Shown one piece after another: positions 1,573 to 57,575 of a stretch of DNA of 64,000 nucleotides (the stretch's first letter is position 1; every line of letters starts with the position of its first letter). A program made the translations under genes and the position numbers. The stretch comes from Thermoanaerobaculia bacterium. GTDB lineage: Bacteria; Acidobacteriota; Thermoanaerobaculia; Multivoradales; UBA5704. The notes under the pieces were generated by a model that saw nothing but the letters and a program-made list of their open reading frames with translations, did not search any database and had not been told where the DNA came from. The stretch is taken from NCBI GenBank assembly GCA_035490435.1, contig DATHEF010000044.1, positions 67,571-131,570 on the forward strand. Reading direction: 5' to 3'.

Positions 1573-3282
1573 TCAAAAAGGTCGAGCGATTCTGGACACT
1601 TCTGGCGGCAATTCAAGCAGCCGCGGGGGAGCGGTTTCAAGCCTCTTGACAACCTCGGCGAGAGCTGTCGGGAGGCGCGGCTGCCGTTTCTCCAGGAAGA
1701 GATCGAGCCACGACGGCGGCGACGGGTAGAAATCGAGGCCGACCGTCTCGCCGGCGCCGATCCGCGCCTCCCGGCGGGCGATCTCGACGGCGCGGTCGAG
1801 CCCGCCGAGCTCGTCCACCAACCCGATCTTCTGGGCCGCGGCACCGGTCCACACCCGGCCGCCGGCGATCCCCTCGACGGCCGACCGGCTCATCTTGCGG
1901 CCGGCGGCGACGTGGCCGATGAAGGTCTGGTAGGTGTGGTCCATGAGCTGCTGGATCCGCGCCTCCTGCTGCGGCGTGTAGGGCTGGAGAGAGGAGTAGA
2001 TGTCGGCGTTGGCCCCGCGCTTCTGGGTGGCGTGGCCGATCCCGAGGATCTCCTCCTCGAAGCGGCGGGTGACGAACTTGCCGCCGAAGATGCCGATCGA
2101 ACCGGTCAAGGTGGCCGGCTCCGCGACGATCCTGCTGGCCTTGGCGGCGATGTAGTAGCCGCCCGAGGCCGCCTCGTCGGACATCGAGACCACGACCGGC
2201 TTCTTCTCCTTGAGCTTCTCGATCTCGCGCAGCATGAAGTCGGAGGCCAGGGCCGAGCCGCCGGGGCTGTCGATGCGCAGGACGACCGCGGCGATCGAGC
2301 CGTCCTCGCGGACGTCGTGCAGCACGGTCGCGAAGTCGTCCGAGCCGAGGTAGACCTCCTGCGTCCAGGGAGCCGAGCCGCCGTCGCCGCGGACGATGGT
2401 GCCGAGGGCGAAGACGACGGCGACCCGCTTGCCGGCGAGGACCGGACGGGGGCTGTAGTCCTCGACGGCGACGTAGGACGGTTTGCGCCCGGCCCGCTTC
2501 TCCAGGTGGTCCTTGAACTCGTCCGGATAGGAGAGCCGGTCGACCAGGCCGCGCGCCAGCGCCTCCTCGGCCGACCAGGGGGCGCCGTCGATCAGCGTCC
2601 GCACCTCGGCGCCGCTCTTGTGGCGCGCCTCGGCGATGGCGGCGACGATCTGCGCGAAGTAGCCGTCGAGCACCGCGGCGATCGCCTCCTCGGCCTCGGG
2701 GCTGTACTGGTTCTCGGTGTAGGACTCGACGGCGCTCTTGTAGCGGCCGACGCGGTTGAAGTTCGGGTCGATCTTGAGCTTGTCGAGCGCGCCGCGCAGG
2801 AACCGGCTCTCGGAGTAGAGCCCGAGCAGGTTCAAGTCCCCGGCGGGGGCGAGGTAGATCTTCTCGCAGGCGGTCGCGAGGTAGTAGGCGAGAGTGCCGT
2901 TCGATCCCTCGCCCGCGGTCTCCAGATAACACTCGACGAACTTGCCGGCCCGCCGCAGGGCCATCATCTGGCGCCGCAGCTCCTGGGCCTTGGCGAGGCC
3001 GAGATCGGCTTCCTGGATGTAGACGGCGAGGCCGCGCACGCCGGCGTCCTGGCGGGCGGCGCGCAGCGCCGGGTAGAGCTCGGCGATGCTGACCGGCGCC
3101 GCGGCGTCGCTGAAGGGAAGGCGCGGCTCGCGCTGCTCCAGCACCGGTCCGGCGAGGTACCAGACGAGGACCGTCGGGCCCTCGCCCACGGCGCTCCCTT
3201 TCCCTCCTATCAGGATGCCGGCGACGGTCGCCAGCACCGCCACGCCGAGCAGGGACAGGAAGATCAGGAGCAGCTTCTTCAT
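1573..3282 (-). CDS. sppA: Signal peptide peptidase SppA (protease IV, 67K type)
   Basis: N-terminal TM, tandem ClpP/crotonase-like S49 domains, motif SMSDEAASGGYYIA; ATG overlaps upstream stop (ATGA). Confidence 0.9.
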   Translation of the reverse strand: MKKLLLIFLSLLGVAVLATVAGILIGGKGSAVGEGPTVLVWYLAGPVLEQREPRLPFSDAAAPVSIAELYPALRAARQDAGVRGLAVYIQEADLGLAKAQELRRQMMALRRAGKFVECYLETAGEGSNGTLAYYLATACEKIYLAPAGDLNLLGLYSESRFLRGALDKLKIDPNFNRVGRYKSAVESYTENQYSPEAEEAIAAVLDGYFAQIVAAIAEARHKSGAEVRTLIDGAPWSAEEALARGLVDRLSYPDEFKDHLEKRAGRKPSYVAVEDYSPRPVLAGKRVAVVFALGTIVRGDGGSAPWTQEVYLGSDDFATVLHDVREDGSIAAVVLRIDSPGGSALASDFMLREIEKLKEKKPVVVSMSDEAASGGYYIAAKASRIVAEPATLTGSIGIFGGKFVTRRFEEEILGIGHATQKRGANADIYSSLQPYTPQQEARIQQLMDHTYQTFIGHVAAGRKMSRSAVEGIAGGRVWTGAAAQKIGLVDELGGLDRAVEIARREARIGAGETVGLDFYPSPPSWLDLFLEKRQPRLPTALAEVVKRLETAPPRLLELPPEVSRIARPF

Positions 3283-4316
3283 GGCGGCATCCTATCCGCT
3301 TGTCGTCTTCCCGGTAATTTTCGAGCAATTTCCCAATAGGCCCGCCAAGCGTCCATCTCCTGAGGGTCGACGCGGGCGACGTGGCAGATCGCGTCGCCCG
3401 GGTGGACGAGCGGGAGCTGGGTGAGGCCGAGGACGATCCCCGCGCAGGGGGCCTTGAGCACGCTACGCTCGCGGCCGAAGGGGTTGCTGTGGGTCGAGAT
3501 CGCCTGCCCGCGGCGCAGCGGCGCCCCGAGGTCCACCTCGAGCTCGAGGATCCCCCCCTTGCGGGAGCGGATCCAGCGCGTGCGCTCGATCCACAGCCGC
3601 AGCGGCGGCGAGGCGGGCTCCCCCGGCATCATCTTCAGATGGCGCAGGACGTTGAGCACCCCCTGGATACCGACCTCGATGAACGGCCGTTCGAAGCGGC
3701 GGGCGCTCCCCGCCTCGTAGACCACGGTCGGCACCCCGGCCGCCACCGCCGTCTGCCGCAGCGACCCCTCGGGTCCGGCGCCGTCGACGATCAGCGGGCA
3801 GCCGAACGCCCCGGCGAGCTCGACCACGGCGGGGTCCGCGAGATCGGCGCGGATCTGCGGGTTGTTGGTGCGCTCGCCGCCGGCGGTGTGCAGATCGAGG
3901 CCGAAGTCGCTCTGGCGGATCACCTCGCGGAAGAGGACGTCGGCCAGCCGGGCGGTGAGCGACCCCTTGCGGCTGCCAGGGAAGCTCCGGTTGAGGTCGC
4001 GGCGGTCGGGGAGGCGGCGGTCCTGATTGAGGAAGCCGGGGACGTTGACGACCGGCACCGCGATCAGCGTCCCCTTCAGGGCGCTGAAGTCGGTGTCGTT
4101 GAGCAGGCCGCGCAGGATGCCGACGCCGTTGAGCTCGTCGCCGTGGACCGTGGCGGTGACGAACAGGGTGGGACCGGGCGCGCCGCGGATGACCGTCACC
4201 GGCACCGTCACCGGCTCGGCGGCGTAGGACTCGGCCACCCGCAGCCGCAACTCGGCCGTCTCCCCGAGGGCGACGGGGGTGCCGGCGAAGCAGAGGGGCT
4301 CGCGCGCCTTCATCAT
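3279..4316 (-). CDS. Succinylglutamate desuccinylase/aspartoacylase (AstE/AspA) family zinc hydrolase
   Basis: Zn-carboxypeptidase-like motifs (HGDELNG...LDLHT) typical of AstE_AspA; downstream of rimK. Confidence 0.8.
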   Translation of the reverse strand: MMKAREPLCFAGTPVALGETAELRLRVAESYAAEPVTVPVTVIRGAPGPTLFVTATVHGDELNGVGILRGLLNDTDFSALKGTLIAVPVVNVPGFLNQDRRLPDRRDLNRSFPGSRKGSLTARLADVLFREVIRQSDFGLDLHTAGGERTNNPQIRADLADPAVVELAGAFGCPLIVDGAGPEGSLRQTAVAAGVPTVVYEAGSARRFERPFIEVGIQGVLNVLRHLKMMPGEPASPPLRLWIERTRWIRSRKGGILELEVDLGAPLRRGQAISTHSNPFGRERSVLKAPCAGIVLGLTQLPLVHPGDAICHVARVDPQEMDAWRAYWEIARKLPGRRQADRMPP

Positions 4317-4336
4317 CTTTATCTTTATCCCGGCCT

Positions 4337-5243
4337 TTATCCCCGCCCCTGGGTGCGCGGGTGGCCCTGATGGGCGCGCTCGAGGACGAAGCCGATCATG
4401 GCGCCGGCGACGTCGACGCCGGTCGCCCCCTCGATCCCCTCAAGGCCGGGGGAGCTGTTGACCTCCAGCACCATCGGACCGTCCTTGGAAGGGATCATGT
4501 CCACCCCGGCGATGTTGAGGCCGAGCACCTCGGCGGCGTGGATCGCGGTCTGGACGTAGGCCTCCTCGAGCTCGACGCCGGCGGCGGTGCCGCCGCGGTG
4601 GAGATTGCTGCGGAACTCCCCCTCGCCGGCCTGGCGCGCCATCGCAGCCACCACCTTGCCGCCGATGACGATGGCCCGGTAGTCGGTGCCGTGCGCCTCC
4701 TCGATGAAGGCCTGGATCAGGATGTTCTGTCCCAGCGAGCTCATGGCGTCGAGCACCGATTCGGCCGATTTGGCCGACTCGGCCAGAATGACGCCCATCC
4801 CCTGCGTCCCCTCCAGCAGCTTGAGGATGACCGGCGCGCCGCCGACCCGGCGGATGGCCGAGCGCACGTCCTCGCGGCTGCGGGCGAAGGCGGTGGGCGG
4901 AATGCCGATGTCATAGCGCGAGAGCAGTTGCAGGCTGCGCAGCTTGTCGCGGCTGCGCGAGATCGCCTGGCTCTCGTTGGCGGGGAAGACCCCCATCATC
5001 TCGAACTGGCGCAGCACGGCGAGGCCGTAGAAGGTGATCGAGGCGCCGATGCGCGGCACCACCCCGTCGACGCCGGTCACCCGCTCGCCGTCGTGGAAGA
5101 CCTCCGGCCGCTTCTTCGACACCTTGACCACGCACCGCAGCGGGTCGAGCACCGCCACGTCGGCGCCCCGCTGGCGGCAGGCCTCGATCAGGCGCGAGGT
5201 CGAGTACAAGGTCGCCTTGCGCGACAGGATGGCAATCTTCATC
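4337..5243 (-). CDS. rimK: RimK-family ATP-grasp alpha-L-glutamate ligase
   Basis: MKIAILSRK... ATP-grasp fold. Track ORF 4337..5731 is an artificial in-frame fusion with the upstream gene; ATG at 5243 overlaps upstream stop (ATGA). Confidence 0.9.
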
Positions 5244-5724
5244 GGTTCTCCGCCTCTCGCCCGCGCGACCTCCGGGGGTGCCATTCGCGGAGCAGGTACT
5301 TGCCGGCGACGTCCACCCGAAAGTCCCCCTCCAGGGCCTTCCGGCCGAGGATCATACGAAAGAGCATGCCGGAGCGGTTGGTCAGCGTGACCAGGATCTT
5401 CTTGCGCACCGGCCCGAGCACCATCTCCGTCTCGATCACCGGCCGCACCTCGGGGTGCCCGCCCGAGTCGACGACGCGCATGCGCCGCAGTACCCGCGCC
5501 TCGGTCTGGACCCGCCAGTCCGGCCGGCGGCGGTCGGGGCGAAACTCGAGCGCCACCCGCTCGGAGCCGTCCGCGAGCACCTCCAGCAGCCGGATGGAAT
5601 CGACGTGCAGCGTCGAGGTGCGGGCCCCGGTGTCCACCTTGGCCTTGATGCGGACGATCCCCAGCTCGGGAAGATCCAGGTGCTCCTTCCAGCCGACGGT
5701 CCGGACTTCCCGAAACTCTGACAT
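5239..5724 (-). CDS. RimB-like ATP-dependent zinc protease / retropepsin-like (DUF785)
   Basis: 161 aa, DTGA aspartyl-protease-like motif (KVDTGARTSTL); conserved partner of rimK; AGGAGA RBS. Confidence 0.8.
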   Translation of the reverse strand: MSEFREVRTVGWKEHLDLPELGIVRIKAKVDTGARTSTLHVDSIRLLEVLADGSERVALEFRPDRRRPDWRVQTEARVLRRMRVVDSGGHPEVRPVIETEMVLGPVRKKILVTLTNRSGMLFRMILGRKALEGDFRVDVAGKYLLREWHPRRSRGREAENR

Positions 5725-5882
5725 CTCCCATCTCCTCGTGGAGCGGACGATCCTATGTAGAAATGCCTAACTCGGAGGAATGCCTTTGTACGAATGAGAA
5801 CGATTGGCCAGAGTTCCTGGCCCGGCTTCCAGAGGGAGCTTCGCTCAAACGCGTATTTTATAGGCTCTCGGGCTGTGGACCT

Positions 5883-6080
5883 CCACCGGGCACGTGGCTT
5901 GCAGACAAAGCAGGGTACAAATTAGTCGGAACCGAGGGGGAAGTTTCATCCAGCCAACCTATGTCCCACCCTTTTAGAGATCCTAACGCGATCTCGTCCT
6001 CAAACAAGCCCACCTTGATCCCCTGATCAGGGGTAGAGCCAACCAAGCCAACCCGAAACAGGAACCTCCCCCCTTAAGCC
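5883..6080 (+). repeat. Copy A of a diverged ~200-nt tandem repeat; candidate small RNA, with internal palindrome CCCCTGATCAGGGG
   Basis: Aligns along its length with 6238..6433 (~70% identity, shared blocks ACCGGGCACG, GAGATCCTA, CCAACCT, CCAACCCG, CCTCCCCCC). Confidence 0.55.
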
Positions 6081-6237
6081 CTCTGGCCAAGCGCCGGGGG
6101 GCCTCTCTTTTTATGGGCGGTTTTTTTAGGAATGCTCCCCTGGCCCTGCCGGTTGCGGGAGAGGTGAGGGGAACCGGCCTCTCCCGGCGTTCTTTGAGGC
6201 AAGAGCAGGCAAGCGGCCGACCGGAAGGCTGGAATGC

Positions 6238-6433
6238 TAGACCGGGCACGGCTGTTGCAGACAATAAGAGACAGGAAATGACGAGGGGGAGAGTTCCAGA
6301 CCAACCTAACCAACCCCACCTGTTTTCGAGATCCTAGTGATCTCAACCTCTTTGACTCCAACCTTAATCCCCTAGCTACAGGGGTACAGCCACAATAGCC
6401 AACCCGGAGAGATGGGGCCTCCCCCCCTACTTC
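6238..6433 (+). repeat. Copy B of the tandem repeat; candidate small RNA, with internal palindrome CCCCTAGCTACAGGGG
   Basis: 355-bp period relative to copy A; followed by a strong intrinsic terminator. Confidence 0.55.
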
Positions 6434-6456
6434 CTCCTTCCCTCGGGAAGGAGGGG

Positions 6457-6489
6457 GCTCCCAGCGCAAGCTGGGAGCTTTTTCTTTTC
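6457..6489 (+). terminator. Rho-independent terminator (GCTCCCAGCGCAAGCTGGGAGC + TTTTTCTTTT), preceded by a second hairpin CTCCTTCCCTCGGGAAGGAGGG
   Basis: Perfect 9-bp GC stem + T-run read directly; lies after repeat copy B and before mutY. Confidence 0.75.
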
Positions 6490-6537
6490 TGGCACCTGCC
6501 TGCCAAATTGGCTGTTGTACATGTCTAGAATGACGCG

Positions 6538-7644
6538 ATGCGGCACGCCGAAGAGCTCCTGACCTGGTTCGACCAGCACCGCCGCGACCTTCCCTGGCGG
6601 CGAACGAGCGATCCCTACAAGATCTGGCTCTCCGAGGTCATGCTCCAGCAGACCCGGGTGGAGACGGTTCTCCCTTTTTACACGCGGTTCCTGGAAAGAT
6701 TTCCCACCGTCGGGGATCTGGCGCGGGCCGAGGTCGAGGAAGTGCTGACTCTCTGGTCCGGGCTCGGCTACTACCGGCGGGCGCGGCAGCTCCACGCGGC
6801 CGCCCGCCAGATTGCCGCGATGGCGGCATTTCCGTCCACCGTCGAGGGACTGCTGGCGCTCCCCGGCATCGGCGCCTACACGGCGGCGGCGGTGGCGAGC
6901 ATCGCCTTCGGGGTCGCCGCGCCGGTGATGGACGGCAACGTCGAGCGCGTCCTCTCGCGCTGTCTCGCCCTCGATGAGGATCCGCGAGCTGCCGGCGCGC
7001 GCCGGCAGCTCCTCGCCGCCGCCGCCGAGCTGCTCGATCCCGCCCGCCCCGGCGACAGCAACCAGGCCCTGATGGAGCTTGGTGCGACCCTCTGCTCGCC
7101 GCGCCGTCCCAAGTGCCTGCTCTGTCCCCTGCGCCCCGGCTGCCGGGCGGCGCGCGAGGGGGACCCCGAGCGGTATCCGATCCCGAAGGTGAAGCGCGAA
7201 GGGGAGCGGCACCGGCTCCTGGTGGCCGTGGTCGAGGAGGGGTCCGGCGTGCTCCTCTTCCGCCGCCCCGAGGACAGCACCCTCCTCGCCGGCACCTGGG
7301 AGCTCCCGTGGACGACCCGCGAGCGCAACGGCACGCCCGAGCCTGGGGACCCCGAGTCCGCCCTCGCCGAGCTCTACGGCGGCCGCTGGACCGTGGGCCC
7401 CCGGATCGCCGGAGCGCGGCACGGCATCACCTACCGCGATCTGGAGATCGACATCCACCGCGCCGAGCTCGCCTGGGGTGGGGAAGTGCGCGAGGGGATG
7501 GCCGCCGGCTTCTTTGACGCGGCCGGGCGCGCCAAGCTGCCGCTGTCGTCGCTGGTGGGGAAGGTGCTGGGAGCGCTGGAGGCGTCGGGGCCTACTCCAT
7601 CGGCGGCGGCACCGGCCAGGAGATCCCCGAGCCGCCGGCGATGA
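6538..7644 (+). CDS. mutY: A/G-specific adenine DNA glycosylase MutY
   Basis: HhH-GPD domain, 4Fe-4S cluster loop CSPRRPKCLLCPLRPGC, NUDIX-like C-terminal domain. Confidence 0.9.
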   Translation: MRHAEELLTWFDQHRRDLPWRRTSDPYKIWLSEVMLQQTRVETVLPFYTRFLERFPTVGDLARAEVEEVLTLWSGLGYYRRARQLHAAARQIAAMAAFPSTVEGLLALPGIGAYTAAAVASIAFGVAAPVMDGNVERVLSRCLALDEDPRAAGARRQLLAAAAELLDPARPGDSNQALMELGATLCSPRRPKCLLCPLRPGCRAAREGDPERYPIPKVKREGERHRLLVAVVEEGSGVLLFRRPEDSTLLAGTWELPWTTRERNGTPEPGDPESALAELYGGRWTVGPRIAGARHGITYRDLEIDIHRAELAWGGEVREGMAAGFFDAAGRAKLPLSSLVGKVLGALEASGPTPSAAAPARRSPSRRR

Positions 7645-13242: not shown

Positions 13243-13352
13243 GACGAAGGGTTCCGGTGAAGCTGCGGCACTCGACCGCATACCTTATCGCTGCTCCCTT
13301 CCGGGCCTGACGAGGTTCGGTAGTGGCCGATGCACAGGACCCGAACCCTTCG
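13243..13352 (-). ncRNA. ffs: Signal recognition particle RNA (4.5S, small type)
   Basis: Minus-strand sequence contains domain IV motif GUCAGGCCCGGAAGGGAGCAGC; 5' CGAAGGGUUC pairs with 3' GAACCCUUCG; conserved ffs-dnaX-ybaB-recR synteny. Confidence 0.8.
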
Positions 13353-14024: not shown

Positions 14025-14114
14025 GGGAGAGATGTCCGAGTGGCTTAAGGAGCACGCTTGGAAAGCGTGTGTAGGGGAAACTCTACCGTGGGTTCGAATC
14101 CCACTCTCTCCGCC
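14025..14114 (+). tRNA. tRNA-Ser (anticodon GGA)
   Basis: Cloverleaf with long variable arm, anticodon loop TTGGAAA, T-arm GTGGGTTCGAATCCCAC, CCA encoded. Confidence 0.85.
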
Positions 14115-14137
14115 ATCGATCTCAAACGTAAGACAAC

Positions 14138-14227
14138 CGGAGAGGTGCCAGAGCGGTCGAATGGGGCGGTCTCGAAAACCGTTGACCGGGCAACCGGTCC
14201 GTGGGTTCGAATCCCACCCTCTCCGCC
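14138..14227 (+). tRNA. tRNA-Ser (anticodon CGA)
   Basis: Anticodon stem GCGGT/ACCGT, loop CTCGAAA, long variable arm, identical T-arm, CCA encoded. Confidence 0.85.
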
Positions 14228-28678: not shown

Positions 28679-29033
28679 TGGTGGAGGTGGTGGGAGTCGA
28701 ACCCACGTCCGAGAAACGCGTATCAGGAGCATCTACGTGTGTATCCCTCTATTCTAAGTCTCACCACCGTGCTCTGGAAGAAGGCCAACCTGGCACGGCA
28801 GCCAGCCTTGCTTTATATCAGGATGCGTCACAAGGCCTCCGCACCCATTGATCCGCTTTAGCGTCGTTCCGGTGGGCGCCGCGAATCAAGGCCCACCATC
28901 GGAACGTCACGAGCCCTTTTTAGGCCGCGAGGGCGAAGTTATCGTTCGCAGTTATTTTTCCAGTGTTACGAGCGGAAGCTCGACACGCCGCCCACTGCTC
29001 CGCTTTGTTCCCCGTCGAAACCGGTACACCCCC
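28679..29033 (-). ncRNA. ssrA: Transfer-messenger RNA (tmRNA); tag reading frame GCG AAC GAU AAC UUC GCC CUC GCG GCC UAA = ANDNFALAA, encoded at 28920..28949
   Basis: 5' end GGGGGUGUACCGGUUUCGACGGGG, 3' end GGGUUCGACUCCCACCACCUCCACCA, canonical tag. Confidence 0.88.
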
Positions 29034-49755: not shown

Positions 49756-49849
<94 letters not shown>

Positions 49850-57485: not shown

Positions 57486-57575
57486 TGGCGGAGGGGGTGG
57501 GATTCGAACCCACGGGCCGCGTGAACGACCGGCGGTTTTCAAGACCGCTGCTTTAGACCGCTCAGCCACCCCTCC
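57486..57575 (-). tRNA. tRNA-Ser (anticodon TGA)
   Basis: Minus-strand GGAGGGGTGGCTGAGCGGTCTAAAGCAGCGGT-CTTGAAA-ACCGC..., long variable arm, CCA; directly downstream of serS. Confidence 0.85.

Follow-up and report, generated by a model that had tools for sequence, protein, structure and literature searches.

Introduction

Several bacteria encode sibling small RNAs (sRNAs) in tandem, as described for OmrA/OmrB in Escherichia coli, PrrF1/PrrF2 in Pseudomonas aeruginosa, and AbcR1/AbcR2 in Agrobacterium and Sinorhizobium; the Qrr genes are dispersed rather than tandem, and glmY has a sigma-54 promoter (PMC4211561). CrcZ combines an RpoN-dependent promoter and an upstream activator site (UAS) with several copies of a short unpaired motif (PMC4063720). 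The present analysis concerns a tandem array of two repeat units between dnaA and mutY in a 64,000-nucleotide stretch of DNA from a Thermoanaerobaculia bacterium (hereafter the window; assembly GCA_035490435.1, contig DATHEF010000044.1, positions 67,571 to 131,570). Thermoanaerobaculia are abundant soil bacteria with few cultured members, and a search of the accessible literature found nothing on sRNAs of Thermoanaerobaculia or on sigma-54-dependent sRNAs in Acidobacteria. The array belongs to a real, well-supported and previously uncatalogued sRNA family, and in the window it probably comprises two independently transcribed, structured + strand sRNAs that have sigma-54 promoters and terminators and act in trans as siblings.

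A tandem pair of non-coding units

The units and their signals are as follows (window coordinates).

5756-5798, + strand: conserved upstream element TGTAGAAATGCC-N-GGAATGCC-TTTGTACGAATGAG, about 90-135 bp before promoter A
5883-6127, + strand: repeat unit A, about 200 nt
5889-5903, + strand: promoter A, sigma-54-type, GGCACGTGGCTTGCA, with GG at -24 and GC at -12 and a predicted start at about 5914
5914-6112, + strand: predicted sRNA A, about 200 nt, or up to about 214 nt if the end is the second T-run (6121-6127)
6078-6112, + strand: terminator A, a 10-bp GC stem (6078-6102) and then CTCTCTTTTT
6128-6135, + strand: spacer box AGGAATGC, read from the sequence and recurring in the spacers of relatives
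6231-6237, + strand: GGAATGC box, the second in the spacer, 7 nt before the -24 element of promoter B
6238-6490, + strand: repeat unit B, about 200 nt, at a period of about 355 nt from unit A
6245-6259, + strand: promoter B, sigma-54-type, GGCACGGCTGTTGCA, with a predicted start at about 6270
6270-6488, + strand: predicted sRNA B, about 220 nt
6433-6454, + strand: 3' hairpin of copy B, CCUCCUUCC/GGAAGGAGG
6457-6488, + strand: terminator B, GCUCCCAGC-GCAA-GCUGGGAGC (6457-6478) with a 9-bp GC stem, and then UUUUUCUUUU (6479-6488)

The initial annotation had proposed two tandem units with a period of about 355 nt, and these were re-found with an identity of about 70-76%: aligned over 5860-6135 and 6215-6495, the units show 76% mean column identity across 288 aligned columns, and repeated blocks (5885-5908/6241-6264, 5972-5985/6323-6336, 6028-6055/6379-6406, and 6065-6083/6418-6436) lie at an offset of 351-356 nt. 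The repeat is beyond chance because it is conserved in 57 + 61 independent sources (genomes and metagenome contigs, see below). The region is non-coding, as had been stated, since none of the five local open reading frames crossing it has a Pfam match and orthologous copies differ from one another by indels of 1-2 nt. The further proposal that the units are paralogous + strand sRNA genes is supported by their conservation in relatives, by covariation, and by the promoter-like and terminator-like signals that each unit carries.

A small protein or leader peptide was considered and rejected, as there is no conserved frame: in last copies, the frames that begin at the AUG of the invariant GGAGAGAUGGGG run for 5 to >100 codons and are unrelated after MGPPP. 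The last copies at all loci share an invariant GGAGAGAUGGGGCCUCCCCC (window 6406-6428) in which a Shine-Dalgarno-like run is followed by AUG-GGG-CCU-CCC-CC (MGPPP). Given the variable length and unrelated remainder of this frame, it is probably not translated, although its polyproline start is curious.

Predicted promoters and terminators, and an upstream element

The most informative feature of the array, absent from the initial annotation, is that the 5' block conserved in both units (ACCGGGCACG-N4-TTGCAGACAA) is a near-consensus sigma-54 (-24/-12) promoter. Promoters A and B both match GGCACG-N4-TTGCA exactly and show the exact 10-bp spacing of GG and GC doublets that defines the class (TGGCACG-N4-TTGCW), and the predicted starts near 5914 and 6270 follow from placing the GC doublet at -12/-13. 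Across the 126 copies of the family recovered with a covariance model (see below), GGYA-N6-TTGC sits 14-30 nt before the model start in 119, and three further copies carry the near-variant GGCAC-N5-[ACG]TGCA. In the 119 copies the GG and TTGC are fixed and the four bases between GGCAYG and TTGC vary freely; the promoter B version, spacer included, recurs in most last copies. No sigma-70-like promoter was found in 5600-6700, and matches to a looser sigma-54 pattern in the 64-kb window are no more frequent than chance outside the two units.

Within the conserved element upstream of promoter A are direct repeats (AGAAATGCCT/AGGAATGCCT) with a spacing of 17 bp, while the outer halves of the element make up an imperfect inverted repeat. 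Most of the 57 sources have the element at a constant distance from their first promoter. It is kept whatever the left-hand gene (rimB, S49 peptidase or dnaA) and occurs as a single exact copy in the 64-kb window. At the promoters of downstream copies there is a GGAAT box instead, some 8 nt before the -24 element: 45 of 65 such promoters have G[GA]AA[TA] in the 30 nt preceding -24, versus 4 of 51 first-copy promoters. Activator sites for sigma-54 are typically located about 80-150 bp upstream. The upstream element is a candidate enhancer (UAS) for a sigma-54 activator, and a similar role may be proposed for the GGAAT boxes, as both have the place and form expected of such sites. The candidate activator-site pattern can be written as TGTAGAAATGC-N15-GCATTTGTAC, and the downstream-promoter box pattern as GGAAT-N8-GGCA. 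From these sequences we infer that both genes depend on sigma-54 and an activator.

One subclade (L012, L021, L024, L025, L027, and L030) lacks the upstream element before the first copy. In these same loci a TATGCAGGAATGG-like element is present after the second copy instead, and in L024 and L030 a weak, degenerate third copy (33-46 bits) follows.

Terminators on the + strand after both copies had been described in the initial annotation and were seen again (6078-6102 followed by CTCTCTTTTT; 6457-6478 followed by UUUUUCUUUU). The terminator part of two Rfam models also aligns at terminator B. A strict hairpin-plus-T-run test is passed by 70 of the 126 copies, and many of the remaining 56, judged by reading, have a GC hairpin right after the C-run and then an interrupted T tract. 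The ends of sRNAs A and B given above are predictions from the promoter and terminator positions.

Conserved RNA structure

Both units match the family covariance model strongly, with cores at 5929-6075 for copy A (137.4 bits, E 2.7e-26) and 6279-6428 for copy B (145.1 bits, E 6.9e-28). The consensus is a long-range closing helix (5' GAGGGGGA.GUUYC with 3' GGRRC.CCCCCUC) that encloses two hairpins, with C/A-rich linkers between the helices in both RNAs. In copy A the helices are P1 (GGGGG..GUUUC with GGAAC.CCCCC), P2 (GAGAUC/GAUCUC, 5976-5994), and P3 (CCCCU/AGGGG, 6020-6033), and copy B has the same P1/P2/P3 architecture. Hairpins are present at matching relative positions in both units, as initially annotated. 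The compensatory differences that had been claimed for the GC palindrome were not borne out, because the stem CCCCU/AGGGG is identical in CCCCTGATCAGGGG and CCCCTAGCTACAGGGG and the loop alone distinguishes them; it takes a comparison of orthologues to reveal compensatory changes, which lie mainly in the closing helix and the GAGAUC hairpin.

In the 126-copy alignment, standard pairs fill 98.4% of pair cells versus 49-72% in slid controls (3' partners shifted by 1-3 columns), and compensatory (both-side) changes occur at 14 of 21 pairs; none of 500 shuffles came up to the observed values. The metagenome copies gave a similar result (97.7% paired, 14 of 21 pairs with compensatory changes), with some of these copies possibly coming from the same organisms as the genome set. 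Covariation is strongest in the inner closing helix, where one pair is represented by UA 49, UG 47, CG 18 and GC 7 times, and in the GAGAUC hairpin AU changes to GC 11 times and UA to CG 16 times. The many G-U pairs assign the RNA to the + strand, as they would turn into A-C mismatches if the other strand were read. Copy B folds with a z-score of -3.4 relative to shuffles.

Distribution and history of the family

Annotation places the closest MutY homologues in the class Thermoanaerobaculia (Acidobacteriota), and four syntenic loci (MutY 73-92% identical) have two or three units upstream of mutY, each with a GGCA[CT]-N5-TTGC box. A pattern for the conserved core matched 55 species-representative genomes, one stretch each, all of them Thermoanaerobaculia or unclassified Acidobacteriota metagenome-assembled genomes (a few labelled Holophagales) and including three complete chromosomes of 7.05, 7.66, and 8.78 Mb; the complete genomes in the set are OY969112.1, OY970373.1, and OY970330.1. 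A covariance model built from 11 seed copies recovered 126 copies in 57 sources, confirming that the unit is conserved in relatives, and in the 64-kb window it finds only the two known copies. The metagenomes contributed 133 further copies on 61 contigs (80 contigs of at least 1 kb were retrieved by pattern, of which 19 were chance matches). Short metagenome contigs that might be transcripts were not seen, every contig being at least 1 kb in length.

Rfam 15, whose families include Qrr, CrcZ, GlmY/GlmZ and the Acidobacteria motifs, offers no known counterpart. A scan of the whole window at gathering thresholds was negative over the units, and when E up to 10 was allowed the window's units gave no match beyond sub-threshold terminator look-alikes (ctRNA, and BjrC68 with 30.4 bits where the threshold is 39). 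Nor did four divergent relatives yield any match at E up to 0.1.

Arrays contain two copies in 37 sources and three in 16, always on one strand. Wherever enough downstream contig is available (about 48 of the 57 genome sources; the other contigs end first), the next gene is a co-oriented mutY, and mutY is likewise next in 46 of 47 metagenome arrays with room downstream; the gap to mutY is about 100 nt. The array is always origin-proximal (0.4-5 kb from dnaA). The RNA family is found only in Thermoanaerobaculia, at a fixed spot next to mutY near dnaA. A single locus in each of the 55 species genomes, together with only two copies in the 64-kb window, rules out a dispersed element (repetitive extragenic palindromic (REP) sequence, bacterial interspersed mosaic element, or miniature inverted-repeat transposable element); REP-like dispersal was the alternative against which the initial annotation had set its sRNA proposal.

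The position of a copy within its array reflects its ancestry. In 51 of 53 cases a first copy has its nearest relative among the first copies of other genomes, and in 49 of 53 a last copy has its nearest relative among other genomes' last copies. Without exception, a copy resembles an orthologue more than it does the paralogue in its own genome (within-genome identity about 62%). This positional orthology implies that the duplication predates the divergence of the sampled genomes and that concerted evolution has not occurred. The block CCGGAGAGAUGGGGCCUCCCCC (6403-6426 in copy B) is invariant among 40 last copies. The pattern of conservation argues for separate purifying selection on both copy lineages, and the first-copy and last-copy lineages probably have partly different targets.

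Neighboring genes and other features of the window

The genes flanking the array, and other features of the window, are listed below.

75-1358, - strand: dnaA
5239-5724, - strand: rimB-like gene (Pfam Zn_protease/RimB-like), the left neighbor, divergent from the array
6500-6531, + strand: palindrome CTGCCAAATTGGC and -10-like TAGAAT, outside the sRNAs, with TAGAAT 6 nt before the mutY ATG (6538)
6538-7644, + strand: mutY, the right neighbor, downstream of the array
28679-29033 (-), 13248-13346 (-), 14026-14225 (+), 49760-49849 (-), and 57489-57575 (-): Rfam RNA genes, namely transfer-messenger RNA, small signal recognition particle RNA, and four tRNAs

The left neighbor of the array varies among genomes (a rimB-rimK-astE-S49 peptidase operon, S49 peptidase alone, or dnaA), and the right side is largely conserved (mutY, a gene for a cyclic nucleotide monophosphate (cNMP)-binding protein, AAA_28, and an aminotransferase). 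The block from dnaA to the array (window 1573-5724, compared with L005, L007, L009, L022, L040, and L062) holds the full operon here and elsewhere S49 peptidase alone or nothing. At the 3' ends, mutY (+) and the convergent cNMP-binding gene (-) overlap by about 53 nt (7592-7644), and the overlap is likewise called in L004-L007.

Of 100 arrays, 96 have the palindrome GCCA-N3-TG[GA]C between the last terminator and mutY, and in 80 a TAGAAT-like hexamer comes after it. This arrangement suggests that mutY has its own promoter/operator and a leaderless mRNA.

On the dnaA side, three copies of a DnaA-box variant (ATTTCCACA/TGTGGAAAT) are clustered at 1386-1417, just upstream of dnaA, and probably mark oriC or the dnaA promoter; L007 has a comparable cluster next to its dnaA (2760-2800). 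The array itself was rejected as an oriC/DnaA-box cluster, since these boxes are 4.4 kb away beside dnaA and none occurs in 5700-6540. A half-site of the upstream element (TGTAGAAAT, 5756-5764) is one base off the local DnaA-box variant TGTGGAAAT (1409-1417). Because the A at the fourth half-site position is conserved across loci, this half-site more likely binds a protein other than DnaA. Inside the dnaA coding region of L007 (2265-2341) there is a sub-threshold Rfam match (33.9 bits versus a gathering score of 52) to AsdA, an antisense RNA of dnaA mRNA, which probably reflects conservation of the dnaA sequence.

Proposed function and alternative explanations

We consider it probable that the array encodes two independent, trans-acting sibling sRNAs. 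Each gene would start at its own sigma-54 (-24/-12) promoter and stop at its own intrinsic terminator, and an enhancer-binding ATPase on the upstream element, perhaps on the GGAAT boxes too, would respond to one signal by switching on the whole array at once. The closing helix and the two hairpins would leave C/A-rich, G-poor linkers showing about three CC[ACU]ACC motifs, and these linkers would be the working surface with which the sibling sRNAs act in trans, pairing with G/U-rich stretches of mRNA. Unpaired positions in the family are 36% C, 32% A, 19% U, and 14% G, CC[ACU]ACC occurs 3.0 times per RNA versus 0.66 +/- 0.07 in dinucleotide shuffles, and the commonest 6-mer is CCAACC (1.9 per RNA; at least two copies in 77 of 125 RNAs). 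Pairing of CCAACC with GGUUGG near the 3' end of 16S rRNA or with the palindrome upstream of mutY was examined by eye and rejected as too short and inconsistent across relatives.

Several observations weigh against this interpretation. Transcription is a prediction from sequence signals, and a search by signature motifs (GAFTGA, RpoN box, Walker A) covering the window and all 142 fetched loci did not reveal rpoN or enhancer-binding-protein genes in the window or in about 1 Mb of relatives' fetched DNA, the sole match being a chance one inside dnaX. The presence of sigma-54 in the Thermoanaerobaculia lineage would follow from the general rule that diderm bacteria with lipopolysaccharide almost always have it (PMC3162934). 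On its own, copy A has no folding advantage over shuffles (z = +0.48), most helix positions are conserved in sequence, the covariation signal comes mainly from about 6 pairs, and the alignments behind the covariation counts were fitted to the covariance model. The absolute co-orientation with mutY leaves room for a role in cis, and a short motif present in several copies on each RNA is as compatible with a protein sponge as with redundant seeds.

The same genes and promoters could produce protein sponges, with the 6-12 CC[ACU]ACC sites of an array titrating an RNA-binding protein in the manner of CsrB/RsmZ with CsrA or CrcZ with Hfq. The recurrence of the motif in unpaired linkers, far above shuffles, the frequency of CCAACC, and the several RNA copies per array are all compatible with this explanation, a C-rich, G-poor surface would also suit Rho, and CrcZ, driven by sigma-54/CbrB and carrying six A-rich sites, provides a precedent (PMC4063720). 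However, the motif is neither GGA nor an A-R-N tract, so the known partners do not fit and membership in the CsrB/RsmZ or CrcZ sponge families was rejected; no candidate protein is linked to the locus, and paralogue lineages that have long been distinct are more usual for RNAs with different pairing targets. We regard a sponge as unlikely, albeit the foremost of the alternatives, and base pairing, given the long separation of the paralogue lineages, is favored at roughly twice the weight. Somewhat less likely again is an origin-proximal, sigma-54-switched RNA decoy that, in place of ordinary antisense regulation, would titrate an RNA-binding factor for which no sRNA antagonist is known (e.g., Rho or an uncharacterised acidobacterial protein), or a paralogue hierarchy like that of GlmY/GlmZ; if the decoy explanation were true, the linkage to mutY and dnaA could reflect coupling to the replication or oxidative-damage state.

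The constant presence of a co-oriented mutY about 100 nt downstream, and the failure of all but 31 of the 57 last copies in the strict terminator test, would be expected if the array or its last copy were a cis-acting mutY leader in which sigma-54 transcription reads through a regulated terminator. This explanation is improbable, as copy B ends in a 9-bp GC stem and a U-run, the palindrome and TAGAAT-like hexamer between the last terminator and the mutY ATG suggest a separate start, the first and middle copies share the architecture without a downstream gene, and the whole mutY-cNMP-AAA28 neighborhood is syntenic anyway. Least probable of all, with hardly any weight, is that the DNA itself is functional and the RNA incidental, as an origin-proximal array of sigma-54/activator sites or an oriC-associated repeat. 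Proximity to dnaA, the DnaA boxes at 1386-1417, and the resemblance of TGTAGAAAT to the DnaA-box variant point in that direction, but the covariation is strand-specific and accompanied by G-U pairs downstream of promoters, terminators are present, no DnaA-box match lies inside the array (5700-6540), and a 4-kb operon separates the array from dnaA in many genomes.

Nothing known about sRNA biology is overturned by the finding itself. It provides Rfam with a well-supported new RNA family (about 260 copies) that shows covariation and whose promoter and terminator are defined, a sigma-54 promoter and enhancer module from which the cognate activator and its signal could be traced, and an unusually old and stable case of sibling sRNAs useful for the study of how duplicated sRNAs diverge.

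Comparison with known systems

The array resembles the tandem sibling sRNAs in that at least two homologous non-coding genes lie side by side, each apparently with its own promoter and terminator. As in OmrA/B, PrrF1/2, and AbcR1/2, the homologous genes are arranged head-to-tail in one intergenic region with an intrinsic terminator each, co-regulation is presumed, and the RNAs probably work through conserved unpaired stretches. Unlike those RNAs, to which they have no sequence or Rfam relationship and which come from a different host phylum, the array RNAs are longer (about 200-220 nt) and closed by a long-range helix, and their promoters are of the sigma-54 type instead of being sigma-70-type promoters controlled by OmpR or Fur. 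The duplication in the array is also far older (about 62% identity, with positional orthologues across the class).

Among sRNAs with sigma-54 promoters, Qrr1-5 of Vibrio (sigma-54 and LuxO) are similar in being several paralogous sRNAs with such promoters, with one enhancer-binding protein serving all of them and additive or redundant output. Qrr RNAs are about 100 nt in length, and the array RNAs differ in having no match to the Rfam Qrr model. CrcZ/CrcY of Pseudomonas (sigma-54 and CbrB; an Hfq sponge) share with the array a sigma-54-type promoter and a repeated short unpaired motif; however, CrcZ is 407 nt long with six A-rich sites for the Hfq distal face, whereas the array motif CC[ACU]ACC lacks A-R-N periodicity and there is no model match. 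GlmY/GlmZ of Enterobacteria are likewise two homologous, similarly folded sRNAs (about 150-200 nt) with distinct roles for the paralogues, one being a decoy for the other, but they are not tandem and are unrelated in sequence to the array RNAs. The array is set apart from the tandem siblings and from Qrr, GlmY, and CrcZ by its fixed site between dnaA and mutY, its repeated motif, its fold, and its size.

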